Sequence record: PZ171035.1
Reading direction: 5' to 3' (one strand)
Source: a phage
DNA: 64,000 nucleotides
The notes under the pieces were generated by a model. The model was not told the DNA's origin. It ran no database searches and saw only the letters and a list, made by a program, of their open reading frames with translations. Positions 34,096 through 47,795 of the stretch are shown here, piece after piece (within the stretch, counting starts at the first letter, position 1; the number at the start of each line of letters is the position of its first letter). Position numbers and translations under genes: made by a program.

Positions 34096-34657
34096 GCCGG
34101 TGTAGGTGGAGAAGACGGCAGGGTAGCTACCTGTGCTTAGTGTACTCTTTGATAGTTTTCGTAAGCGATTATGCGGTTTTTTAGAAACGAACCAATAACA
34201 TAAATGCAAACGATGATGTTGTTCTGATGGCGGCGTAATAGCCTGTAAGTCAGCAAGGTCTTCCGACTCCTTGTAAGCAAATTCGGCGCAGTGGCCCGCT
34301 GTGATTAATAATGGGCACACAACAGGTAAGAGCATTTAGGCTACTGAGAAATCATCCGAGGCAATCAGACCTATCTTCTGTTAAGTGCTCTTTCCGTTGT
34401 GGTGAATGCGCAGGCTGATGCGCAGTGGGACGTGGCTGACTCACGAGGATGGCTCAAGCGAATAAGCAAGCTCGACGCCGCCGAATAAGCGCCTTATGCC
34501 GGAGATCAGCACCGGCCACCACAACAAGTCCAGACGATATCTGAGTGACTATAAAAACAGATGGAGCCAGGTGGAATCCCTGGCAACTAATTCCGGTGTA
34601 GGTACTAGTGTCGTGCACGGCATGAGCATTCTGGTTCGAGTCCAGACGCCGGAACCA
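34096..34657 (+). ncRNA. candidate tmRNA-like RNA (tag-like reading frame at 34206-34241; limits very tentative)
   Basis: GCA AAC GAT GAT GTT GTT CTG ATG GCG GCG TAA TAG = ANDDVVLMAA + two stops, AU-rich upstream, resembles tmRNA resume/tag regions; 3' T-arm-acceptor-ACCA at 34630-34657; no G3-U70 pair found. Confidence 0.3.
34592..34657 (+). tRNA. tRNA-like minihelix element A (acceptor stem + T-arm + A + CCA, truncated body)
   Basis: 5' TCCGGTG pairs with 3' CGCCGGA; T-arm TCTGG-TTCGAGT-CCAGA; encoded ACCA; only 66 nt, no canonical D/anticodon arms. Confidence 0.35.
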
Positions 34658-34659
34658 AT

Positions 34660-34783
34660 TACCAGTTGCACGAGATGGCTTGACATGTTCAAGTTTGGAC
34701 TAAGTGTGACACCGCTAGATTGGAGGGCTGCTGCGGTAAGCTATAGACTCCAACCGGAGGTTCGAATCCTTCACTGGTAACCA
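34660..34783 (+). ncRNA. tRNA-like element B (T-arm + acceptor + ACCA, 124-nt body)
   Basis: 5' TACCAGT pairs with 3' ACTGGTA; T-arm GGAGG-TTCGAAT-CCTTC; encoded ACCA; too long for a canonical tRNA. Confidence 0.3.
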
Positions 34784-35366
34784 ATTCAAAGTAGCACTCG
34801 TTTATACTTCCCGGTATTCAAAGACACATTCTTGTGTGAGTGTTACTCTGAATTGTAAGAATTATGGGGGTAAGTCGTAAATACGACAGCGTAAGTACCA
34901 GATGAAACCTCTGGACGCCCCTACCATATTTGAGATGTAACAGTTAAATCCGTACCCGGAAGTGCTATTCTAGATACGCTGCCAATGTGGAGACGGTAAG
35001 GCTGTACAGGACTCGGACTCCCACCTCAAACCAAAGTCGCCAGATACTTATGGCAAACGGGTAGTAACGAACTAGTCATTCGTCAAACGCCCACCCTATT
35101 ATGAGTCAGCAAGAACGCCTTCACTTAAACTTAAACAAAAAAGCTTAACGCAATAATTATGTAGGGGTATGTAAGGATTGCGAAGAAGGAGCCAGTTAAA
35201 GTCTGGCATGACTCACCTAATTGAGGCTGTACTTATGTTCTACAGTAGGTGCACAACACTGGGCTGCTACACCCAGAGGTACAGCCTCACCCTATTATGG
35301 GTAGCCTATACTAGTTATAGGGCAGATAATCTGTGGCAGTGTAAGGCTGCACTACCCTTTCATTAA

Positions 35367-35442
35367 TACCCGGTAGGCTTAGTGGTAAAGCCCCACTAGT
35401 AAACCAACTAGGACGCAGGTTCGAATCCTGTCCGGGTAGCCA
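35367..35442 (+). tRNA. tRNA-like gene C (76 nt; canonical acceptor, D and T arms; non-canonical anticodon loop)
   Basis: Acceptor TACCCGG/CCGGGTA, D-arm GGCT-TAGTGGTAA-AGCC, T-arm GCAGG-TTCGAAT-CCTGT, G + CCA; anticodon arm folds only as CTAGT/ACTAG with 6-nt loop or CTAG/CTAG with 8-nt loop. Confidence 0.5.
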
Positions 35443-35447
35443 TTTAT

Positions 35448-35532
35448 GCCCACTTAGCTCAGTGGTAGAGCGCAGGAAAGCTTCGAGAGAACAAGGTGTC
35501 TGTGGTCACTGGTTCAAATCCAGTAGTGGGTA
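35448..35532 (+). tRNA. tRNA-like gene D (85 nt; canonical acceptor, D and T arms; anticodon region not foldable by eye)
   Basis: Acceptor GCCCACT/AGTGGGT, D-arm GCTC-AGTGGTA-GAGC, T-arm ACTGG-TTCAAAT-CCAGT; 35-nt segment between D and T arms. Confidence 0.45.
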
Positions 35533-35848
35533 CTTATTTGCTGCAATATTCCCATAGGGAATGGTGTCGTATACGCCACCTAGTTTCTGGTGAAACTCCA
35601 GATGCAGCAATCCATTCAGCAGTAACATAGTCCTGATTGCATTGCACTCTAAAGACAACACTGGTAAGACAGTCCAGTGGCTGCTATTGTATTGATATTC
35701 CCCTCGACGGGAATTTCGCTAGTGAAGGTAACACTTAAAAATCCAAACCCACGTCTTACTGCTATCGGGCTATCAACCCACAGTCGCTTAACACACTAGT
35801 GGTAGTAGTTTGACGACCTAGCCTCGTTAGCTGCGTTAAAGCTACTAA

Positions 35849-35886
35849 GTCCCCTAGAGCCGCCCCTCTAGGGGACTTTTTTATTT
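35849..35886 (+). terminator. strong intrinsic terminator closing the RNA-gene region
   Basis: GTCCCCTAGAG-CCGCCC-CTCTAGGGGAC hairpin followed by TTTTTTATTT. Confidence 0.7.
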
Positions 35887-37377: not shown

Positions 37378-40300
37378 TTAGTTAGTAAGATTGAGCCACG
37401 GGTTCAGGGTATGAGCACGTAAGCCTTGACCGAAACCGAAGGAGTAACCAAGATTGCCCTGTGCAGCAATACTAAAGATGTTGTCCTGAATAGGCAGGCC
37501 AACGTTACCAAACATGGTAGGGGTTGGGGCCAACATAGCCATAGCAGCATGAACTGGGTTATTACGAATCATGGACACTGCAACTTTTGCAGAACGAATC
37601 TTAAAGTTGTAGAACCACATCAGACCAACGCTTTCCATATACCCACGGAAACGACCAGGCAGACGGTCATAGTTAATGAACTCTTCCGTTACACGTCCCA
37701 GTGCTTCTTCGCGAGTCTTACCTTTACGCTGAGTTAGTTCATCATAGATGATTGCTTTAGCAATAAAGTCAGAGTACTCAACCGTCTTCTGGATACTCTG
37801 GAACAAAGCAGTATCCTTAGTGATAAGTGCATAACGACCTGCGTTACGTACAGACTTAGGCAGCTTATCGGCTAGCTTATCCATATATTCGTGAAGTTTA
37901 CCTTCAGTAATCAGAATGTCATCACGCCCAATACCAGCATCTGCAATTGAAGAGAACTCACCAGCTTCCAATAGAGGCCAGATACTCAAACGCTTATGGC
38001 TATCCGTAATGGACTGAATCTCAGCCTTAAGTTTACGAATCTGGTTCGGGTTAGTAGCTGCACGTAATTCTGCTTCTGCATCTACCTGACGCAGGCGAGA
38101 TTTCAGGTACTGGTTAATCTCAGCAGTCTTCTGTGGAATGCTCTTAGCAATGTTCTTAACCGGTACACCACGAGCAACCATCTGGTAAAGGTTAGCCAGG
38201 AAGTTAACAGCAGGTACAACTACTGACTTAACCACAATCAGAGTCTTAGCTTCTTTAACTAAGTTTTGAACCAGGTTCTCTCCACCCATTACATATTTAT
38301 AAGCACGGTTACCGAAGACACCCAACATAGCTTTCTTGAAGGTATCCAGTGTTTCTGGGGACCAACGAGAATTACCAGACCAGGCATCACCAACGGAAGC
38401 TGCACGATAACCTAAGGCATCATTAAGCATGTCACGACGTACCCACAACTCACCTGGACCAAACAGACTTTCTGCTTTCTGACGAGTTTCACTATTCATC
38501 AGCTTAAGTGCATCGGCAGTTACTGGGTCCAGTTTAGAACCAAGAAGGTTAACGTACTGGGACTTATTAGAAGCAGACATCTTAATGTCGTTCTCATACA
38601 TGCTATGCAGGTTCTCAATTAGCATATCGTTGAAACGCTGAGCCTTAGCCTCTTCTACCTGACGACCACGCCATACACCGATTGCACGAGCAAGATGGTT
38701 CTCACCTTCAATGTGCTTCAGCATGTTAGGGTCAATAGATTGCTCGTAAGCAACTACATTACCATTAGCATCATATACAGGCAGCAGAGGTTCATTACCA
38801 CGTTCACCACGAGCAAGTGCTTTAGTGATACGGTCTACAGAAGGCTTGTCAGTGATACGACCCGCTACCATGGTTCCCATCGTAAAGCCTGTACCAAGGT
38901 CTACACCACCAGCAGTATTTCGAACGTTCTGTAAGATACCCTGTGAGAATGGGGCCTGTGCCTGTACTGGTGCGAAGTAGTAGCTACGTGCTGGACCACG
39001 GTTAGCAGAGCTACCTTGATAAGTACCCAGACGTACATAGGACTTCTCAATCAAATCACCAAACTGGCTATCTTCAGCAACAATCAGATTAACACCCTGT
39101 TTAGTCTCACTAGGGATATGCCCTTTGTACTGGTTCAGGGTTGCACGCATATCAGATTTGGCTTTAGCCATTTCATCTTTACGCTGACCAACCAGGTAAG
39201 AGGTGGCAAAGTCCATCCCATCAACTTCTGTCTGAGCCAGTGAAGATAACATCTCACGGTCGGACTTGTTCATTGCTTCCAGTGCATACAGGGTAATCAG
39301 TTTATCCAGTTGAGCTACATCTACAGTAGAGCGTGCAGCCTGACGTTCACCCAGCATACGGGAGATTGCAGTAGCATTACGCAGCAGGTTTTTACCGACA
39401 GTACCATTAATCATGTACTGAGCCAGTTGCTTAGATTTACGGTTAATCAGAGGCCAGTTACGACCAGCTTGTTTCTGCAAATCTGCTTCCAGCTTATTCA
39501 CTTCACGGTCAACAATCTTCTGGTCAGTCAGTAAGTCACGGATTTCAGCCAGTGACATAGTGTCACGCAGGACAGCTAAATCTGTTTTACCCATACCAGT
39601 ATGCATTACTTTCCACTCATCATTAGTCAGCTTACGGCTGAACTTAGATGCGATAGTAGTAGGCAGATGTTCACGGAACTGCTGACGGTCTGCCTGCACC
39701 TGTGCACGTACTGCTTTAATCAAATCGTATACAGAAGCATTGCTCTTAGTACGACCGGTTAAGTCATTAACCAGGTCATGGAAAGGTTGCCATACCTTAC
39801 CCTGGTTCATTGCAGCCATAACACCTTCAGCTACGATTGCACCATTCTTCTCTGTAGCAATAGCAGCTACCAGTTGTGCAGCATGAGCAGCACCTTTAAC
39901 CAATGGATTATTGGTATTGGCTGCAACTTCACGAGCACCTTCCAAAGCACGGGTAGATAGTACATCAATAGAATCCACCAGATACTGGTTAGCACGGTCA
40001 ATAGCATTACCAGTAGGAGTAGCAACGGAATCATAGAAGGATTCTGCATTAAGACTGGTCTGCATAATCGTCTGAGCCAGTGCATCCATACCTTCCTGTA
40101 CGTTAGTAGCTTTAGTATCACCTGCTACACGAGCATTCAGACTAGCCATTGCAGCAGTACCAATGTTAGTCAGCATTGCATCAACGGTATTACCTGATTT
40201 CTTATCTGCTTTCATGACAGGAATGTCAGCCAGTACTTTACGTACTTCTTCACTTACCATTGCCAGACCAACAAAGGTAGGCAGTAAAGAAGATCGACCT

Positions 40301-43300
40301 TGTGCATCAAACTCAATGTTGTTAGCACCCATGATGGTATCGAACTTCTGCTGTGCATAATAACGATCAGCAGGGTTAGTACTATCTGGGTCAGCCATAA
40401 ATGCTTCGACGGTCAGATTCTTAGTAACATGCGTGTAGTATTCCTGTGCACGAGCCATAGCAGCAGGGTTAACAGCAGCCTCGGTAGCCAGTGCAGCAAC
40501 AATATTGGTAAAGAGACGCTGTTCCTGCATATTCATGGTGAAGCCATGAGCCTGAACATCACGAGTTACTTTAGTTGCATTTACTACTGCATCAGAGAAC
40601 TTACCTTTGCGAATTACTTGCTGTACTGGTTCTGAACCAATGTAGTTAGTAATTAGCTTATCAAAGGTTTTCCCTAGCTCTTCCAGACGAGTATTTTCAC
40701 CATACGCTTTGTTATGGAACAGAGTAGTATCTTTGGCTACAGCAGCAGTAGGAGCTTGCCCACGCATTACTACAGCAGAGTTAAACAGTAAGCCAGAGAA
40801 CATATCTTCTGCATTAGCAGGAGCTTTCTTACGTCCAAATACCAGACGTTTGATTGCTTCATATACAGCCTGAACCATAGTTTTAAGTGCAGTGGTTTTC
40901 TTCTGCTTACTAATCAGTTCTCGGTTGGTTAAACCCCAAGCCATGTACTCGTTCAGTGCAGCAGCTTTAGCCATTGCTGGTTCAATAAAGCCATTGGATA
41001 GGTGACCATTAATGGTATTCAGTGCATCAGCATATGCTTCTCGTACTGCCGGAGATTCATCCCTAACATCCAGAGCACGGAACTGATTCATCAGGTCTTC
41101 GATGTTCTGGACTGCTTCATTAGGAGTGCCTTCATAGTGAGCCAGTACAGATTCAAAAGTAGAAGCATGTACCAATTCATGAACCAGAGTCTCTAAGGAA
41201 GGGGTAACTAAGTAGATGGTTTTATCTTCAAAGTTAGTCCAGCCGTATGCATTACCAGCTTCAGCAGCTTCAATATCTTCCGGTGCTGGGCGAGTAATGT
41301 TCTTCTCAATAGCATAGGCATCCAATTGAGCAGGTGTACCGTAAACAACTTTATAGTCTTTAGCAGCAAGGGATTTCTGTATTTCTTTCAATACTTCTTG
41401 CTGTTCAGGAGACATCTCTTTAGCCAGTTTAGTAATGGCAGTGTTAGACAGCAGACGTACACCAGACTTCAGTACACGACCAACCTGTTCCATCGCCGGT
41501 ACTTCTTCCACTGGTTCTGCTTTAGTAGCACGTACTGCTTCACGACGCTTATTTAATTCAGCATCAAACAGTTCGTTCAGCTTAGCTACTTGCTGGTCTA
41601 CAGTAAGACCTTCCAGAGAGATTTTACCGTTGTTCACATAAGGAGCACCTACGGCAGCCATCTGGTCAACAGTGACTTGTACCTGGTCCATTACCTTGTG
41701 ACGAATATCTACACCCAGAGCAATGTTACGCAGGTTACGTTCAATCTGCTCAGCACCGACACGTAACAGGTCATCAGTAGCACCCTCACGTTGGTCATAC
41801 TCCAGAGCAGACTTAGCGATAGCCTGTTTGGTTTCATCAGACAGTTTACTGAAGTCTACGTTCTTCATGAACTTAGCGTAGGAGTCATAAACATTCTTGA
41901 TAGGGTTACCCTGCCAGGAAGTATATACAGCCTCATTAGCTTTGCGACTTGCATCAGTGATGTCATTGATACCAATGTTCATACCATCAAAGATTTTCAG
42001 GGTATTCTTCGGAGCACCTTTCATAGTAGAAAGTGTCTGCATCATCATGCCATCACCAGTACCGATGGTCATAAATGGAATACCTGCAACACCTGCCTGT
42101 GAAGGAGCATAAATGCTCATTGGCACACGCATACGGTCATCTAAGTTAGTAGCCAGTACTTGGTTAGCAACATCAGTATTCTCACTACCAGCAATGTAGA
42201 AAGTCTGTGAACCAGTCTCAATCATTGGAGCCAGTGAAGATAATGATTCCTGGATTTCATTCAGTTCTTTCTGCGTTAAGAAATCACCTTTCTTCCAGGT
42301 TGGGTCTTTTTCTTTTTCTGCCAGCTTAGCCTGTACTGCTTGCTGGAACATATCCTGCAATACCAGAGATTGAATCTGGGTAGCCTTCTGCAAGTTCTCG
42401 GTAGAGTGCATCAGACCTTCACCAACAGTATTACGGATACCAGTACGCATTGGTTCAACGAACAGGTGGAGCATGTTCTCTTGTAAGTTCTTCAGGGCAT
42501 TACCGGATACGGTAAATTTCTGGGGGTCTAACTTACCAGTCAGAGCACCATCTACTTGCTGAATAGACAACTCACCTTTACGCATAACTGGAACATTACC
42601 AGTCAGTGCTTCCATAGAAGTAAGGAAAGTATCCAACATAGCCTGAGCATCAGCTTCAGACGCAGCCTCCTTACCAAACATTGCCATAGCTGGGGAAATG
42701 CTAGGGTCAGCAGCTCGTGCTTGCAGAACGTCACTGAAGCGTTCGTAGATGGTATCAGTAATTGCACTGACCATCTTGCCAGCAATACCACGAGCACCAG
42801 AACCATAGATGGTAATGGTCAGTGGGTTTTTAGCAATACCACGTTTCAGGTCCAGAGTACCGTCTTCATTCAGGTTAAAGTCTTTAATGAACAAGTCCAT
42901 TAACTTCTGGAGATGATTCATCTGGCTCATAACTGGAACGTTGTTACGGTAAGTAGTACGTAACTCATTCAGTGCTTGTTGAAGACCATTGGTAGATGCT
43001 TCATACAAGTCAACATTATCGTCGATAGAACAATGTTCGTTCATCGTTTTACCAGCACGACCAAAGAACAAACCACCTTTGGCAGTGTTCTTAATCCAGT
43101 CTGGAGTGAACTTACCACCAGTCATTAATACCATTGCGTTGATTGGGCCGTTGGTTACACCATCAGCTTCAACGTACAGTGGAGTAGTAAAATTAGCACG
43201 GTCATCACTGTTCAGGTAACGGGCATATTCCATCAGAGCCATGAGAGCTACGAAGGATTTATCACTACCCAGAGAGGTCTTCAGGATGTCTACTGCATCT

Positions 43301-46300
43301 GTCGGTAAGTGACCAGACTTATCAAACTCAACCATCATATCAACAGCAGGTTTCAGTTTACCTTCCAGAGCTTTAGTTAACTCTTCAGACATAACTTCAC
43401 GGGACATTTTATGTACCTTGATGCCTAATGCCTGAGCCAGACCTAACTGGAAGTCAGAGAACGCTTGGCTGTTTTCATTACTCAAGTCGATAGTAGAGAA
43501 GGTTGGTAGGATTGCTTCACGAACCAGCTTACTGGATTGTGGGTTGTTCTTACCAAGCATCTGCATACGACCTACACGGGTCATGTTATAACCGTAGTGG
43601 ATAGGTGTATCCAGACCATTCTCTTGTTCTCGTATCTGATTAATTACACCGAACAGAGAATCATATGCCATAGACACGGACAGGTTTTTACCTTCCAAAG
43701 ATTTAGCAGTGTTCGCGTTCAGTAATTCTGGATTAAGAGTACCAGCACCCATCAGTTCCAGAATGTTGTCACGCCCCAATGCTTCATAGAAGTTAACCAT
43801 TGGCATATGTACACGGAACTCGGTAGCCTGTTCAGCTTTCAGTGCAGCTTTCTGTTCAGGGGTATTCTTAACAGCAGGGTTACGCAACTGAGTCTGAGCC
43901 ACAGAAGGAATGTCATCACCAAAGTACATTTTCTCTTCTGGTTCTAAGAGGACAGCTTCCTCAATAGCAGTAGGGAATTTATTAATGGCATCATTGTCAT
44001 CCAACTTCTCAATGGTATACAGACCAACAGTCTTATTGGAGTCTGGGTCAATCTCAGACACATCCAACATAGACTCTTTAACTTCACCCATCTCAATGAG
44101 AGAAGACAGAATCTCTGTAGCCATTGCCATTGGGATACCTTTGGTATAACCCAGCGGTGCATTAGGATTACGATTCAAACCCCAGTAGGATTCAATCTTC
44201 TGAGCCAGTGAGTTAGTAGCTTCAACCAGGGTCTGGGCATTCTCGAACTCAGCCAGAATACCTTCTGGTAACAGAGATGCTTCTACGCCTGTAATAGCAG
44301 CTACGTCTTTCATATCTTTAATGGCAGCATTCTGTGTAGTAGTCAGTCGCCATTGCAAACCAGCAAGCACAGCAGTCTCTAACAACTGGTCGTTGAACTT
44401 AAAGGTATCCCCATCTTGTTCAACTATATTCAGCAGTTTGCCACCTACCCAACGGTTAGCTTCAGTACCTTCTGCAAAACGTTTACCAACGTTCTTATTA
44501 GCAAGGAACTTAGCCAGACGTTCAGACAAAGTAGTCTTCAGAGTTTCACCAAAGTCCATTAAGTCCTGATAACGCTTAATCACATCACTAGTGAGAGCGT
44601 TATTTTCTTTTTGAGTGAATGCCTCAAAGCGAGCAGCAGAAGACAGTGCTTGCTTAATATCAGTCAAAGGAGATTCTGAACCAATGGTACGGGACTTAGG
44701 TTCTTCCGGTAAGGTAAATGCTTTCAGGAACTGGTTCGGTGTCTTTTCATTGTTATAGACAGGGAACACTGTTTCCATTTCTGTTTTGGTTTCAGCTACT
44801 TCCTGGATGGTATCCTCATTCTTGAGAATAGCATCTACTGTTTCAGGCTTAGTAGTAGAGACTTCTTCTGTTTTTGGACTAGTCTCCTTAGTAGGAGCAG
44901 TCTTATTTTCTACCACAGGTTTAGCTTTAGGCTGTACAGTAGTAGTGTCCTCTTGCACTGGTGCAGGAGATTCATCAACCTGATTCACTGGTTCATTAGT
45001 CTGTTGAGACTGAGTGGCATCAAGACCACCTTGACGGAACTCTTTAACTACCTGGGCAGCAGGCTTGTTCAGACGTGAATCCAACGAGGTAACTTTCACA
45101 TGAGAAACATTAAGCTCCGGGTAAGCCGTAGCAAGTGCATTAGCAATATCAGCTACGGTTTTGGCTTCCAGTCCTACTTGCTGGGCAAACTTAACAGACT
45201 TGGTATCGTAAGGATTGACACCGAGGCCAGTACGACTACGTACCCATTCACGGGAAGGCGAGAGAGCCTGATAATGAACAGACTTATTCTTATCCGCATT
45301 CCCCGAAATCAGATGCTCATTCAACGCTCCGACCTTATTCTGCATGTGCTGGGCGAACTTCATAAAGTCGCTCAGATAAGCGGAGGCCAAATCGAAGTTA
45401 CCAGAGTTATACGCAGAACGAATGCGTTTCGCATGTTGCAACGCAGAGTACTGTCCTTCATTAGAACGAGACTCGTCGGTTTTAATCTGTTTACTAACAA
45501 TGTCTTGAGGACGTAAGCCTAGTTCTTCTGCTTTAGCGTCGAACTCACGTGCACCCTGTAACAAGGCAGCAGCAGATTGCAGGGCAGCACGTTGACGATT
45601 ACCCAATGTAATCTTACCTTCACTTGCATGTTTCAGAACCATGTTCACTGAATCCGCATCCAGTACTTCTGGAGATACATCAGCAGCCATAGCAATATTG
45701 TTTGCTTGGGCTTGGTTAGCTTCTTCAGTAGCTTTCAGCTTACCTGCTTCAGCCTGTTCCTGAATCATGGAATGGATAGCACGGAATGCACGAAGTACTT
45801 TCGGGGTATTCTGTACGTTAGCCATCAGGCCGGAGAATTGGTCTACGATTGCAGCAGCAGGAGAACCCTGTTCAAGATTAGCCAGAGCACCTGGGTCACG
45901 GTTAATGAAGCTATCCATAGACATGATGTTGTCATACATCTGGATTGCAGCTTCCATTTGAACGTTAGGGTCTTCGGCAGTATTAACCAGGTCAGCCATC
46001 TTCTGAATAGCTTCAACACGGTTAGTGGAACCAGAAACAGCTTCACGGATTGCCGGGTTAGCTTGTTCCAATTCTACCGGGTCAAACTTCATTGCCTGAG
46101 TTAAGTCAGCAGCATACTGGGTAGCAGCAGCTTTCTCTTCTGGAGTGATGTCCATTGCATCCACTGCTTCTTGTACAGTTGCCTGTGCTTGTTCTGCCTG
46201 AGCAGCAGCTTCCTGTGCAGCAGCATTAACCGTAGCATCAGCTACAGGGGATGCTTGTTCATTACGCTTAGCAACTTCTTCACCACGTTGAATCAGGATG

Positions 46301-47730
46301 TTAGTAAGAGGGGATGCAGCTTTTGCTAATGTTTTGCCAACCAGAGAAGCACCAGCCATGGTAGTACGAAGAGCAGGGCCAGCAGAAGCACCAACTGCTT
46401 TAACAGTTGTACCAGGAGCTTGAGCAACCCCAGCACTACCGAATCCATAAAGTGCACCCAGACCTGCTTGCTCACCAACCCCTTTGAGGGTGTCACGGGA
46501 TGCATCAACGTTTTCTTTGATTGCAGTATTCTGTGCGAACTGACCAAAGCCGGATTGAATACCTTCTTCGACTGTTTCACGTAGCATATTAGAACCAGCA
46601 CCTGCCAGTGAACCTACCTTAAGTGGGTTAAGTTCAAAGCGAGATACCAGTGGACCGGTAGCAGCAGCAACTGGAGCAGTTAAGCCAGCAGCAATGATAC
46701 CTGTTTCAGATGCAGTCTGACGACGTGCTTCATCAGGAGATAAACCATCAGCAATATGTTGTTGGTAAACAGGAGACTTACTTGCCAATTCTTGATGGGA
46801 CATCTTCATGATTTCAGAAGCAGTCTGTTGGTATGCACCACCAGCTTCCATACCACCGATTGCAATAGCAGGTGCAGCAACACGACCGGCAGACAATGCA
46901 ACCTGTGCAGGACGTGAACCTAACCCAGCAGCTAAGGTAATACCCTTAACAGCTTTATCACCACCTACCATTACTTTACCAAGTGCAGATACACCACGAA
47001 TAAGAGGACCACCAGTAAAGAGAGAACCAACACCTTCACTCAGTCCGTCAGAGGCAGCCATACCATTATCAAGTGTGTTAGCAACAGAATCGAAAGCGTC
47101 ACGACCAATACGAGACAGGGAGGCAACCAAATCGCTGTCCCCATTTTTGATATCTTGTTCATAAAGTTTCTGGTTCTTTTGAGCAGAAATCTGGTTCTGA
47201 TTCTGAACAACTTTACGGGTAGCATTCAGTGCATCAGACTGTAGATTGTGTACACCTTCATTCAACCAATCCATCCCGGAAGCAATGGATGCCCCGGCAT
47301 TATCATTGACCAGACCTGTGCCAAGAGCAGCAATGCCCCCAAGGGTATTAGCAACACCAAGACCAACACCAGAAAGAGTATCGCCAAATGCTTCTGCGTT
47401 AGTACGCTGTTTAGATAAGTCCTGACGTACAACATCAGCAGCATTAGCTCGGCTATTAATAATCTGTAGACCTTGTTCATTACCGTACTTATTAATGATT
47501 TCTAAAGGGGAGGCTTGAGTGAAATCTGCCTGAAGTGAACCTGGTTCGAATGCACCGATTCCAAGATTACCTACTCGTCCGGTCTGGAGATTGTAAGCAT
47601 TCTCTGGGGTTAATTGGAAAGGGCTTTGCCCTTGTGCAGCTTGCTTCTGAGAGGTTGCAGTAGAGACATCGACTTGCTTAGCATTAGTGATGCTGTCTGC
47701 GAAACCTGCCAGACGGTCAAATGTTGACAT
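37378..47730 (-). CDS. virion-encapsidated giant RNA polymerase (vRNAP, N4 gp50-like)
   Basis: Single uninterrupted 3450-aa ORF; only N4-like phages are known to encode a virion RNAP of this size; ORF track start at 47748 is TTG, first ATG at 47730 has AGGAAA RBS. Confidence 0.85.
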   Translation of the reverse strand: MSTFDRLAGFADSITNAKQVDVSTATSQKQAAQGQSPFQLTPENAYNLQTGRVGNLGIGAFEPGSLQADFTQASPLEIINKYGNEQGLQIINSRANAADVVRQDLSKQRTNAEAFGDTLSGVGLGVANTLGGIAALGTGLVNDNAGASIASGMDWLNEGVHNLQSDALNATRKVVQNQNQISAQKNQKLYEQDIKNGDSDLVASLSRIGRDAFDSVANTLDNGMAASDGLSEGVGSLFTGGPLIRGVSALGKVMVGGDKAVKGITLAAGLGSRPAQVALSAGRVAAPAIAIGGMEAGGAYQQTASEIMKMSHQELASKSPVYQQHIADGLSPDEARRQTASETGIIAAGLTAPVAAATGPLVSRFELNPLKVGSLAGAGSNMLRETVEEGIQSGFGQFAQNTAIKENVDASRDTLKGVGEQAGLGALYGFGSAGVAQAPGTTVKAVGASAGPALRTTMAGASLVGKTLAKAASPLTNILIQRGEEVAKRNEQASPVADATVNAAAQEAAAQAEQAQATVQEAVDAMDITPEEKAAATQYAADLTQAMKFDPVELEQANPAIREAVSGSTNRVEAIQKMADLVNTAEDPNVQMEAAIQMYDNIMSMDSFINRDPGALANLEQGSPAAAIVDQFSGLMANVQNTPKVLRAFRAIHSMIQEQAEAGKLKATEEANQAQANNIAMAADVSPEVLDADSVNMVLKHASEGKITLGNRQRAALQSAAALLQGAREFDAKAEELGLRPQDIVSKQIKTDESRSNEGQYSALQHAKRIRSAYNSGNFDLASAYLSDFMKFAQHMQNKVGALNEHLISGNADKNKSVHYQALSPSREWVRSRTGLGVNPYDTKSVKFAQQVGLEAKTVADIANALATAYPELNVSHVKVTSLDSRLNKPAAQVVKEFRQGGLDATQSQQTNEPVNQVDESPAPVQEDTTTVQPKAKPVVENKTAPTKETSPKTEEVSTTKPETVDAILKNEDTIQEVAETKTEMETVFPVYNNEKTPNQFLKAFTLPEEPKSRTIGSESPLTDIKQALSSAARFEAFTQKENNALTSDVIKRYQDLMDFGETLKTTLSERLAKFLANKNVGKRFAEGTEANRWVGGKLLNIVEQDGDTFKFNDQLLETAVLAGLQWRLTTTQNAAIKDMKDVAAITGVEASLLPEGILAEFENAQTLVEATNSLAQKIESYWGLNRNPNAPLGYTKGIPMAMATEILSSLIEMGEVKESMLDVSEIDPDSNKTVGLYTIEKLDDNDAINKFPTAIEEAVLLEPEEKMYFGDDIPSVAQTQLRNPAVKNTPEQKAALKAEQATEFRVHMPMVNFYEALGRDNILELMGAGTLNPELLNANTAKSLEGKNLSVSMAYDSLFGVINQIREQENGLDTPIHYGYNMTRVGRMQMLGKNNPQSSKLVREAILPTFSTIDLSNENSQAFSDFQLGLAQALGIKVHKMSREVMSEELTKALEGKLKPAVDMMVEFDKSGHLPTDAVDILKTSLGSDKSFVALMALMEYARYLNSDDRANFTTPLYVEADGVTNGPINAMVLMTGGKFTPDWIKNTAKGGLFFGRAGKTMNEHCSIDDNVDLYEASTNGLQQALNELRTTYRNNVPVMSQMNHLQKLMDLFIKDFNLNEDGTLDLKRGIAKNPLTITIYGSGARGIAGKMVSAITDTIYERFSDVLQARAADPSISPAMAMFGKEAASEADAQAMLDTFLTSMEALTGNVPVMRKGELSIQQVDGALTGKLDPQKFTVSGNALKNLQENMLHLFVEPMRTGIRNTVGEGLMHSTENLQKATQIQSLVLQDMFQQAVQAKLAEKEKDPTWKKGDFLTQKELNEIQESLSSLAPMIETGSQTFYIAGSENTDVANQVLATNLDDRMRVPMSIYAPSQAGVAGIPFMTIGTGDGMMMQTLSTMKGAPKNTLKIFDGMNIGINDITDASRKANEAVYTSWQGNPIKNVYDSYAKFMKNVDFSKLSDETKQAIAKSALEYDQREGATDDLLRVGAEQIERNLRNIALGVDIRHKVMDQVQVTVDQMAAVGAPYVNNGKISLEGLTVDQQVAKLNELFDAELNKRREAVRATKAEPVEEVPAMEQVGRVLKSGVRLLSNTAITKLAKEMSPEQQEVLKEIQKSLAAKDYKVVYGTPAQLDAYAIEKNITRPAPEDIEAAEAGNAYGWTNFEDKTIYLVTPSLETLVHELVHASTFESVLAHYEGTPNEAVQNIEDLMNQFRALDVRDESPAVREAYADALNTINGHLSNGFIEPAMAKAAALNEYMAWGLTNRELISKQKKTTALKTMVQAVYEAIKRLVFGRKKAPANAEDMFSGLLFNSAVVMRGQAPTAAVAKDTTLFHNKAYGENTRLEELGKTFDKLITNYIGSEPVQQVIRKGKFSDAVVNATKVTRDVQAHGFTMNMQEQRLFTNIVAALATEAAVNPAAMARAQEYYTHVTKNLTVEAFMADPDSTNPADRYYAQQKFDTIMGANNIEFDAQGRSSLLPTFVGLAMVSEEVRKVLADIPVMKADKKSGNTVDAMLTNIGTAAMASLNARVAGDTKATNVQEGMDALAQTIMQTSLNAESFYDSVATPTGNAIDRANQYLVDSIDVLSTRALEGAREVAANTNNPLVKGAAHAAQLVAAIATEKNGAIVAEGVMAAMNQGKVWQPFHDLVNDLTGRTKSNASVYDLIKAVRAQVQADRQQFREHLPTTIASKFSRKLTNDEWKVMHTGMGKTDLAVLRDTMSLAEIRDLLTDQKIVDREVNKLEADLQKQAGRNWPLINRKSKQLAQYMINGTVGKNLLRNATAISRMLGERQAARSTVDVAQLDKLITLYALEAMNKSDREMLSSLAQTEVDGMDFATSYLVGQRKDEMAKAKSDMRATLNQYKGHIPSETKQGVNLIVAEDSQFGDLIEKSYVRLGTYQGSSANRGPARSYYFAPVQAQAPFSQGILQNVRNTAGGVDLGTGFTMGTMVAGRITDKPSVDRITKALARGERGNEPLLPVYDANGNVVAYEQSIDPNMLKHIEGENHLARAIGVWRGRQVEEAKAQRFNDMLIENLHSMYENDIKMSASNKSQYVNLLGSKLDPVTADALKLMNSETRQKAESLFGPGELWVRRDMLNDALGYRAASVGDAWSGNSRWSPETLDTFKKAMLGVFGNRAYKYVMGGENLVQNLVKEAKTLIVVKSVVVPAVNFLANLYQMVARGVPVKNIAKSIPQKTAEINQYLKSRLRQVDAEAELRAATNPNQIRKLKAEIQSITDSHKRLSIWPLLEAGEFSSIADAGIGRDDILITEGKLHEYMDKLADKLPKSVRNAGRYALITKDTALFQSIQKTVEYSDFIAKAIIYDELTQRKGKTREEALGRVTEEFINYDRLPGRFRGYMESVGLMWFYNFKIRSAKVAVSMIRNNPVHAAMAMLAPTPTMFGNVGLPIQDNIFSIAAQGNLGYSFGFGQGLRAHTLNPWLNLTN

Positions 47731-47795
47731 AGCATGTTTCCTGTTCAAACTTATATCGTATATAGGTAACTTACTCTACAGTAAGCCAGTTAAAG

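Follow-up and report, generated by a model that had tools for sequence, protein, structure and literature searches.

Two adjacent tRNA-like genes without an anticodon loop in a G7C-like coliphage: candidate non-decoding tRNA mimics from two phage RNA families

The tRNA genes of phages are usually viewed as a codon supply and, lately, as a means of escaping anticodon nucleases. Stable RNAs that resemble tRNAs have been familiar from phage tRNA clusters since the work on T4, whose species 1 and 2 (rnaC and rnaD) are small stable RNAs of the tRNA cluster, co-processed and partly tRNA-like. We know of no decoding role for these two RNAs, nor of any description that gives them a canonical tRNA body in which the anticodon arm has been exchanged. 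The two genes considered here, C and D, resemble species 1 and 2 as genes for putatively stable RNAs of phage tRNA clusters. Phage tRNAs that escape anticodon nucleases carry altered anticodon loops, plausibly under host defence pressure (PMC10264068); they nevertheless keep 7-nt loops and decode, whereas C and D are devoid of that loop architecture. Given these altered-loop tRNAs and the T4 precedents, the general kind to which C and D belong is thus already known. C can also be likened to +1 suppressors and other tRNAs with an 8-nt loop (PMC3617221, PMC3113583), as it can be drawn with such a loop if its terminal U-A pair opens. However, +1 suppressors keep U33, purine 37 and the normal helix register, and C does not, its own fold having a 6-nt loop and that of some of its kin a 9-nt loop. 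At the locus itself, the tRNA-Ile(AAU) of phages ST4, UE-S5a and PhAPEC5/7 is a gene of the same kind as C and D, but it has a 5-bp anticodon stem and a 7-nt loop, CUAAUAA. In their place, D carries a 30-nt arm capped by GNRA, and the helix of C is shifted and ends in a 6-nt loop, so that neither could present an anticodon.

The tRNA-like domain (TLD) of tmRNA and the TLD-only ssrA of mycobacteriophage DS6A are likewise tRNA-shaped, with no anticodon and no codon reading (PMC4131195). An exhaustive survey of 2014 found ssrA in mycobacteriophages and Bacillus phage G only, and a molecule similar to the TLD-only RNA of DS6A inhibits tmRNA, perhaps by titrating SmpB (PMC4131195). The TLD of tmRNA differs from D in having G3.U70, no D stem and a P2 leading to the mRNA-like domain, whereas in D the 3-70 pair is C3-G70, the D arm is complete and the hairpin is closed; D therefore lacks G3.U70, the pair that tmRNA uses for alanylation. 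A further likeness to the tmRNA system is that the arm of D is also borne by a scaffold often located 3' of a tmRNA-like tag ORF (see below). Finally, YrlA, a Y RNA-like RNA (RF02553), combines a tRNA-like module with a long helix containing a conserved internal loop instead of an anticodon arm. This candidate was rejected: its score is 18.7 bits for a gathering score of 69, the match covers C's T arm together with D's D arm, i.e., an artefact of adjacent genes, and the topology differs. In the literature on the arm sequence, on N4-like tRNA-like RNAs, on phage tRNA decoys and on phage tmRNA-like RNAs, neither the two families, nor the GNRA module, nor its shared use was found described, and Rfam 15 holds no model for the C or D families beyond the generic tRNA match.

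The RNA gene block and the anatomy of C and D

The DNA analysed, a stretch of 64 kb hereafter called the window, comes from a G7C-like, N4-like coliphage (Gamaleyavirus, Schitoviridae), the region being 85-94% identical in patches to phages of this group. The window contains a 3,456-aa ORF on the minus strand (37378-47748), in the place of the gene annotated as virion RNA polymerase in relatives. The ORFs listed between ~33,550 and 35,900 are all short and fall in a block of tRNA- and tmRNA-like RNA genes that has C and D at its 3' end. Structured RNAs are densely packed in this block, with spacers of 3-10 nt. Its features around C and D are as follows.

35286..35299, plus strand: leader/promoter-like motif CTCACCCTATTATG, whose 3' end is the 5' G of the small structured RNA listed next
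35299-35358, plus strand: small structured RNA, directly 5' of C
35367..35442, plus strand: element C, 76-nt tRNA-like gene with encoded CCA (Rfam tRNA, ARAGORN, conservation)
Sub-parts of C: acceptor 35367-73/35432-38; D arm 35376-92; T arm 35415-31; G73 35439; CCA 35440-42
35393..35414, plus strand: 'anticodon' region of C (MFE and centroid fold; helix kept in relatives)
35448..35532, plus strand: element D, 85-nt tRNA-like gene, CCA not encoded (Rfam tRNA, conservation)
Sub-parts of D: acceptor 35448-54/35525-31; D arm 35457-71; G26 35472; variable loop 35503-07; T arm 35508-24; A73 35532
35473..35502, plus strand: arm module of D, replacing the anticodon arm (variants in relatives, pattern scans)
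35847..35878, plus strand: intrinsic terminator-like hairpin and T run

The exact 9-mer CCTATTATG is present in three copies in the 64-kb window (34037, 35095 and 35291), all on the plus strand and inside the RNA block, and in related phages variants of the leader motif lie immediately 5' of C, D or tRNA-Ile. As exact and longer-motif scans find it in the RNA block alone, CCTATTATG is not a general promoter, and its reading as a genome-wide one was rejected. Downstream of D, the block is closed by the hairpin at 35847-35878, made of a 13-bp stem with 7 G-C pairs and followed by TTTTATTT; PhAPEC5/7 annotate a terminator at the same relative place.

The first-pass annotation had described C and D as two adjacent tRNA-like genes with canonical acceptor, D and T arms but aberrant anticodon regions. 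This is confirmed by the sequence and by the Rfam tRNA model RF00005 (whole 64-kb window searched; gathering score 29), which gives 39.3 bits for C (E=8.9e-05, match 35367-35439) and 53.9 bits for D (E=8.2e-09). Both keep the tRNA body, i.e., a 7-bp acceptor, U8, a D loop with G18G19, a GUUCRANYC T arm and a discriminator base, and neither ARAGORN, nor Rfam, nor ViennaRNA yields a 7-nt anticodon loop for either of them. Their folding energies (z = -2.3 for C, z = -1.3 for D) are not exceptional.

In C, the acceptor (UACCCGG/CCGGGUA), the D arm (GGCU-UAGUGGUAA-AGCC), the T arm (GCAGG-UUCGAAU-CCUGU) and G73 frame a middle region composed of a connector CCA (35393-95), a stem strand CUAGU (35396-400), a loop AAACCA (35401-06), the other stem strand ACUAG (35407-11) and a connector GAC (35412-14). 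The 6-nt loop is found in both the MFE and the centroid structures of ViennaRNA, and an 8-nt loop, UAAACCAA, is obtained if the U-A pair opens. Both drawings had been put forward from the letters alone; ViennaRNA and ARAGORN agree on the 6-nt version, ARAGORN reporting a 'tRNA-??? anticodon (ac)' whose 2-nt 'anticodon' is its code for a 6-nt loop. The helix is shifted out of register by 2 nt, the D stem being followed by three nucleotides, CCA, instead of the normal single one, and just 3 nt, GAC, take the place of the variable loop before the T stem. This register shift had been missed in the first-pass annotation. With its 3-nt connector and 6-nt loop, C departs from a decoding tRNA, which has a 5-bp in-register stem and a 7-nt loop of the form Y32-U33-NNN-R37-N38. 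A U33/purine-37 frame is absent from the loop of C in every register, that of the 8-nt drawing included.

D has a GCCCACU/AGUGGGU acceptor (with G1.U72), a canonical D arm, a variable loop UGGUC, a T arm ACUGG-UUCAAAU-CCAGU and A73, and all its positions involved in tertiary interactions are legible (U8, A14, G15, G18G19, C48, G53-U54-U55-C56, A58 and C61). The Rfam alignment places 24 nt where the tRNA model has 11, and ARAGORN makes no call for D. The earlier statement that D has no standard anticodon arm therefore stands, but the region is a conserved GNRA hairpin and is not disordered; moreover, 36 nt, and not 35 nt as first counted, separate the D and T arms. In the 30-nt module, a 22-nt insert replaces the anticodon loop, which is thus lacking, and the consensus is CAGG-ANA-G(Y)UUC-GNRA-GAAC-AAGGUG-YCUG. 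In the window, the module is drawn as a basal stem CAGG/UCUG (35473-76/35499-502), a purine-rich internal loop of AAA (35477-79) and AAGGUG (35493-98), a distal stem G(C)UUC/GAAC (35480-84/35489-92) in which C35481 is bulged, and a tetraloop GAGA (35485-88).

Among the variants of this arm, the tetraloop is GAGA, GGAA, GGGA or GAAA, i.e., always GNRA and closed by C-G. Outside the tetraloop, variation is limited to the central nucleotide of ANA, the bulged pyrimidine, a single G>A within AAGGUG and the closing pair, which is G-C or G.U. The six variable positions thus all fall where the module is unpaired or tolerates wobble, as do 15 of its 30 positions by our own count, and we estimate the probability of such a placement by chance at ~0.01. 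The paired positions never vary, hence the lack of covariation in the arm, and the predicted hairpin fold rests on the placement of the variation and on the GNRA pattern. Scans that left the arm interior free, with either the flanks or the basal stem plus internal loop as anchors, found no other arm in class 1, i.e., the D-type tRNA scaffold, and patterns with a free interior retrieved known loci only, with no distal-stem variant. As judged from these comparisons, the replaced arm is the most constrained part of D.

Several resemblances of the replaced arm were considered and rejected. AACAAGGU coincides with 16S 1499-1506, but a 22-nt arm compared with 4.5 kb of rRNA is expected to give about one 8-mer match by chance; CGAGAG.AC is similar to the 23S sarcin-ricin loop, but its 'GAGA' varies as GNRA in relatives. 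None of the K-turn, loop E/bulged-G and 11-nt receptor motifs fits ANA/AAGGUG when compared by eye, and AAGGUG, taken as Shine-Dalgarno-like, forms at most 4 contiguous pairs with the anti-SD.

The C and D families and their distribution

Comparison with orthologous N4-like loci, a check suggested along with the first description, places both C and D in conserved families. By BLAST, C has kin in ~24 Gamaleyavirus records, with 94.7-98.7% identity, and is better conserved than its flanks, the surrounding kilobase being ~85-90% identical and partly unalignable in Gamaleyaviruses. Depositors label these copies tRNA-OTHER, tRNA-Thr or not at all. In nine Gamaleyavirus copies, the middle arm is invariant except that the loop AAACCA reads AAACUA (C>U) in ST4 and E20. 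The acceptor pair G6-C67 is changed to A6-U67 in AN24P2, UE-S5b and IME11, while 24-32N shows a G.U intermediate.

More distant members of the C family, of 76-79% identity, are found in KP8-like Klebsiella phages, in Enterobacter phages SABI and SonariX, in Klebsiella phage 05F01 and in uncultivated contigs. They retain the acceptor stem (with U1-A72 in all cases), the D loop, the T arm and the CCA. Their middle helix has diverged completely in sequence and still pairs (CAUAGC/GUUAUG in KP8, CCCAG/CUGGG in SABI, CCCAA/UUGGG in 05F01), as is also the case for the L084 and L088 copies, and their loops are AGGCAU (6 nt) or, in the SABI/05F01 subtype, RACUUAAGA (9 nt). ARAGORN gives a normal tRNA call for none of these distant members. 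The recurrence of a shifted helix with a non-7-nt loop across the C subtypes indicates that this is the conserved character of the family and no accident of one genome.

D matches 198 phage records (N4-like, T5-like and Vi01-like), of which 140 cover at least 80% of the query. Its identity is 100% in HK2, 97.6% in Shigella phage pSb-1, 97.5% in Bas96, where it is annotated tRNA-Val, and 96.4% in EP_H11, a 111-kb phage taken as T5-like on account of its size and tRNA cluster. Copies in over 130 Vi01-like Ackermannviridae show 93% identity across nt 8-77; they lie directly after tRNA-Ser and are labelled tRNA-OTHER, tRNA-Leu or left unannotated. The Vi01-type acceptor is different, UGCUUCA/UGAAGCA, with A73 and an encoded CCA, so that between the N4/T5 and Vi01 types 5 of the 7 acceptor pairs are changed on both sides (8 distinct sequences). 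In the same 8 distinct sequences, all 192 stem cells examined are paired (192/192, 100%), compared with 32-44% in slid-partner controls. D is kept in essentially all Vi01-like phages listed and is also present in N4-like, T5-like and KP8-like phages.

In the acceptor stems of both families, no broken pair is found except in one copy, that of L084. Neither family shows the signs of a pseudogene: the stems of D are intact, the acceptor changes of C are compensatory and C is more conserved than its flanks. On these grounds, neither looks like a set of decaying one-offs, and both appear to be under selection. Both families are confined to enterobacterial phages and have a low sequence diversity, and a recent lateral spread could mimic purifying selection.

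At the locus, the slot of D is occupied by tRNA-Ile(AAU) in most sister phages, and D and this tRNA-Ile(AAU) have in common the variable loop, the T arm, the 3' acceptor strand and the 3' flank. The shared slot and 3' portion make D an allelic cassette, whose exchange probably took place by recombination inside the T arm. Relatives contain either C with tRNA-Ile, or D alone in the tRNA-Ile slot, or tRNA-Ile alone, or neither C nor D, and one KP8-like contig has D followed by a KP8-type C. Among the phage records and loci examined, C adjoins D in no other Gamaleyavirus. C and D, noted as a pair at first, are thus not a unit, since these varied combinations in sister phages are those of independent cassettes. 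All these results show that C and D are independent, horizontally mobile genes for what are predicted to be tRNA-shaped RNAs without an anticodon loop.

A second scaffold with the D-type arm and the tmRNA-like tag RNA

A weak match of D nt 23-56 to the E. coli chromosome, which could have been read as due to chance, turned out to correspond to another scaffold located in prophages, and the chance reading was dropped. This class-2 scaffold is also present in the window, where it bears a different arm.

34399..34527, plus strand: class-2 tRNA-like scaffold (sequence, alignment with HK620, Bas77 and UPM2146, fold)

In lambdoid and siphoviral phages (e.g., HK620, swi2, SopranoGao and ZCKp20p), GCGCAGG-arm-CCUGU is part of a different, degenerate cloverleaf, with the layout UGUGGUG-AAU-GCGC AGGCUGAU GCGC-arm-UAUACAA-GCCGG(9 nt)CCGGC-CACCACA. 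The GNRA arm is at the anticodon position in this scaffold too, and the 34-nt block GCGCAGG...CCUGU is common to both scaffolds. The closing stem covaries, from UGUGGUG/CACCACA to UUGGAUG/CAUCCAA in a prophage group. The scaffold of the window, (U)GUGGUG-AAU-GCGC AGGCUGAU GCGC ... GCCGG AGAUCAGCA CCGGC-CACCAC(A), has a 74-nt insert where lambdoid and siphoviral phages have the D-type GNRA arm, and its GUGGUG/CACCAC stem closes around a multi-branch loop; Klebsiella phage UPM2146 has a third kind of arm. The D-type arm can therefore be described as a 30-nt hairpin module swapped between true tRNA scaffolds, in virulent phages, and a tRNA-like scaffold, in temperate phages.

With the D-type arm, the class-2 scaffold was found at 43 lambdoid/siphoviral loci of IMG/VR. 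Of 5,426 complete E. coli genomes, 107 contain it, in single copy and unannotated. A 17-nt pattern scan of genome contigs gave no family member among the 120 matches listed, which are chance matches and no measure of bacterial distribution. In HK620, the scaffold lies between pR'/qut and the late terminator, and in another prophage group we read it as flanked by a nutL-like site and by the gene that opens the leftward early operon. The reading of UGCUCUUUCC, upstream of class-2 scaffolds, as a boxA was discarded, its pairing with the conserved upstream GGUAAGAGCA being more likely.

Upstream of the class-2 scaffold, a conserved RNA is present in the window, HK620, Bas77 and UPM2146. The Rfam tmRNA models match it below threshold (31.2 bits, E=2e-4 locally; window match 34135-34290), and they do not match C or D. 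In the window, this RNA contains ...AUAAAU GCA AAC GAU GAU GUU GUU CUG AUG GCG GCG UAA UAG, i.e., a tag ANDDVVLMAA in a tmRNA-style resume context, and the tags of relatives are ANEEMYLAVA, ANEEAYLMVA, ANDNAYLAVA and ANDNTFLAVA. BLAST retrieves homologs of the tag-RNA block from 862 phage records, among them those of Vi01-like and Felix O1-like phages, and the tag ORF is present in the window, in Bas96 and in KP8-like and Vi01-like phages. ARAGORN makes no tmRNA call for the tag RNAs tested, and the records inspected leave this tmRNA-like RNA unannotated.

The association of the tag ORF with the elements considered here is partial. About 40% of the class-2 scaffolds (19/48) are located within 650 nt 3' of a tag ORF, and for the other 29/48 no tag ORF was found by regex within that distance. 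PhAPEC5 and PhAPEC7 have the tmRNA-like ORF and neither C nor D, which argues against a specific co-occurrence. In KP8, the tmRNA-like RNA starts immediately after the CCA of a C-type element. A 6-nt match between the replaced arm of D and the tmRNA-like RNA, ACAAGG/CCUUGU, was rejected as a pairing, since it is not kept in HK620.

Possible roles of C and D

Our preferred reading, to which we give a probability of about 0.5, is that C and D are conserved non-decoding tRNA mimics. Their transcripts would be matured like tRNAs, by RNase P, 3' trimming and CCA addition, into stable L-shaped RNAs. These would act in trans, the tRNA body providing stability and access to the tRNA-binding machinery, and the replaced arm being the effector. 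For D, we favour the guess that its arm would direct the RNA to the translation or ribosome-rescue apparatus without codon pairing, by analogy with the tRNA-like domain of tmRNA, in which SmpB is found in place of the anticodon arm, and with the TLD-only RNA of DS6A. D might then either aid or block trans-translation during infection, and C might be a similar non-decoding tRNA mimic. The link of D to trans-translation is possible, its basis being the positional association with the tag RNA, which is incomplete. In the distal helix of the D-type arm, UUC is paired with GAA under the GNRA tetraloop, i.e., as a covalently closed Phe codon-anticodon mini-helix. A more daring proposal, which we hold to be very doubtful, is that this arm could be an RNA substitute for the anticodon-codon interaction, allowing A-site entry without mRNA, and could form with the tag RNAs a phage rescue and tagging system, possibly without SmpB.

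The main rival to the non-decoding mimic reading is that C and D are anti-defence decoys, whose bodies would be bound by tRNA-targeting nucleases or sensors (PrrC/RloC-type, PARIS AriB, retron PtuAB or Schlafen-type); having no cleavable anticodon loop, they would behave as competitive inhibitors or sponges. Phage tRNAs are indeed able to counter anticodon nucleases through anticodon-loop changes (PMC10264068). C and D are moreover accessory, being present in some sister phages only, as counter-defence genes would be. The 9-nt loop of the SABI/05F01 subtype of C includes CUUAAGA, which has the form of a tRNA-Leu(UAA) anticodon loop, but the loops of the three C subtypes are unrelated. We nevertheless consider decoys unlikely, as the arm of D is unlike any anticodon loop and yet is its most conserved part, which would be odd for the decoy of an anticodon-reading nuclease, and as the same arm is found in lambdoid prophage transcripts, where a decoy role is less obvious. 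The two genes could alternatively be decaying or selfish DNA, young and hitch-hiking, C being a tRNA gene with an indel in its anticodon arm and D a tRNA gene disrupted by a mobile hairpin. The little diversity in each family, the lack of any variant of the D-type arm in distal-stem-free scans, the presence of the 34-nt block in two unrelated scaffolds, which is what lateral movement would produce, and the fact that D supplants a functional tRNA-Ile(AAU) would all fit. Decay appears rather improbable, however, when set against the compensatory nature of the acceptor double changes in both families, with no broken pairs but those of the one L084 copy, the far better conservation of C than of its flanks, the retention of D throughout the Vi01-like phages listed and in the three other phage groups, and the persistence of a non-7-nt loop in three C subtypes whose helices have completely diverged.

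Two further explanations would do without a mimic. C and D could be cis-acting punctuation, their tRNA-like folds serving only for the RNase P and RNase Z cuts that define the ends of neighbouring RNAs, and both the start of the KP8 tmRNA-like RNA right after the CCA of a C-type element and the close spacing of the RNAs in the block are in line with this idea. It would however leave unexplained why the replaced arms are the most conserved parts and why ordinary tRNAs would not do as well, and sister phages keep the neighbouring RNAs without C and D, so that we find punctuation very unlikely. The idea that C and D are real decoding tRNAs, C reading quadruplets or shifting frame through its 6/8-nt loop and D being spliced from an intron-containing precursor, seems to us the least probable of all. 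In its favour, 8-nt anticodon loops are found in +1 frameshift suppressors and in yeast mitochondrial tRNA-Thr (PMC3617221, PMC3113583), and depositors have labelled family members tRNA-Thr, -Leu, -Gln or -Val. These labels are however mutually inconsistent, C has neither the U33/purine-37 frame nor a helix in register with the tRNA core, and its sister subtypes differ in loop length and sequence. The insert of D contains no bulge-helix-bulge, as its single 3 x 6 internal loop is followed by a 4-bp stem and the tetraloop without a second bulge. Its 13 nt in excess of a normal arm are far too few for a group I intron (~200 nt or more), and no Rfam intron model matches. To our knowledge, E. coli has no tRNA splicing endonuclease. 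The first-pass annotation had offered unusual functional tRNAs, recoding tRNAs or tRNA-derived decoys as possibilities: an unusual functional RNA or tRNA-derived mimic agrees with the conservation across phages, whereas recoding, and in particular +1 frameshift suppression, is not supported for C, with no U33 or purine 37 and with unrelated 6- and 9-nt loops in its kin, nor for D, with no anticodon loop.

As non-decoding mimics, the C and D families, which would keep the tRNA body under selection and discard the anticodon, would represent a third use of the tRNA shape by phages. If they act on ribosome rescue or on tRNA-directed immunity, they could provide a direct handle on the phage control of host translation. 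For annotation, C- and D-type genes are at present recorded as tRNA-OTHER, tRNA-Thr, tRNA-Leu, tRNA-Gln, tRNA-Val or 'hypothetical protein', or are left unannotated.

The tmRNA-like RNA and its relatives

The region of tRNA- and tmRNA-like genes that ends with C and D (the RNA block) contains, besides these two genes, the following elements, of which the tmRNA-like domain may outweigh C and D in importance.

Further RNA elements in the window
34037, 35095 and 35291 (+): leader motif (C)TCACCCTATTATG, repeated, with variants at ~35212 and 35438-35447, just 5' of D
34135-34290: unannotated tmRNA-like mRNA-like domain with a tag ORF at 34206-34241, with sub-threshold Rfam matches and a resume context
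34399-34527: class 2 scaffold, a degenerate cloverleaf, its flanks identical to those in lambdoid phages that carry the D-type arm
~34591-34656: tRNA-like element that encodes its CCA and has a paired acceptor and a T arm of UUCGA type
34660-34782 (approximate): second tRNA-like element with the same three attributes
35299-35358: structured RNA of 60 nt, between the leader motif and C

The tmRNA-like domain matches the Rfam models tmRNA_permuted (31.2 bits) and beta_tmRNA (18.5 bits), each under threshold. Its resume context is AUAAAU-GCA, and its ORF, which closes with two stop codons, encodes the tag ANDDVVLMAA. Homologs are present in 862 phage records, their carriers including Vi01-like and Felix O1-like phages, HK620 and siphoviruses of Erwinia, Klebsiella and Salmonella, with the tags ANEEMYLAVA, ANEEAYLMVA, ANDNAYLAVA and ANDNTFLAVA; ARAGORN made no call for any of the homologs tested. 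In Salmonella phage Vi01 (135,200-136,400; ~795-835 within the compared locus, L212), GGGUUCGACUCCC...CGGCUCCAC, located ~360 nt 3' of the tag ORF, looks like the 3' terminus of a bacterial tmRNA, and a complementary GGAGCC is found ~95 nt beyond it (L212, 926-934). Together, this likeness and this complementarity hint at a candidate tmRNA gene, complete or permuted, in Kuttervirus.

Exchanged arms and uncalled tRNA-like genes

The class 2 scaffold is occupied by a 74-nt insert, also present in Bas77, where lambdoid carriers have the D-type arm, and that of UPM2146 has a third kind of arm. At its anticodon position, the class 2 scaffold seems to be a hot spot of module exchange. In the slot of D (35448-35532), the sister phages ST4, UE-S5a, PhAPEC5 and PhAPEC7 have a tRNA-Ile with anticodon AAU, which is the gene replaced by D. 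E. coli is not known to use an AAU anticodon for Ile.

Neither of the two further tRNA-like elements is called by any tool. The acceptor is UUCCGGUG/CGCCGGAA-CCA in the first and UACCAGU...ACUGGUA-A-CCA in the second, where ~90 nt separate the acceptor strand from the T arm. Klebsiella phage KP8 keeps both, in a changed order, and its tRNA cluster (locus L017) includes further 'tRNA-OTHER' genes at 1245-1319, given a 6-nt loop and 'anticodon (ca)' by ARAGORN, and at 2109-2175, the counterpart of the first element. tRNA-like genes with a loop of other than 7 nt, or otherwise uncallable, therefore seem recurrent among N4-like phages.

Leader motif and the RNA preceding C

The leader motif is restricted to the RNA block and, in the window phage as in sister phages, extends precisely to the first nucleotide of a tRNA or tRNA-like gene. 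Given its similarity to the T7 promoter core GACTCACTATAG, the motif may serve as a local promoter or as an RNase P leader. The 60-nt RNA that separates it from C has a minimum free energy of -24.2 kcal/mol (z = -2.4) and can alternatively be drawn, by eye, as a mini-cloverleaf with the closing stem GGGUAG/CUACCC.
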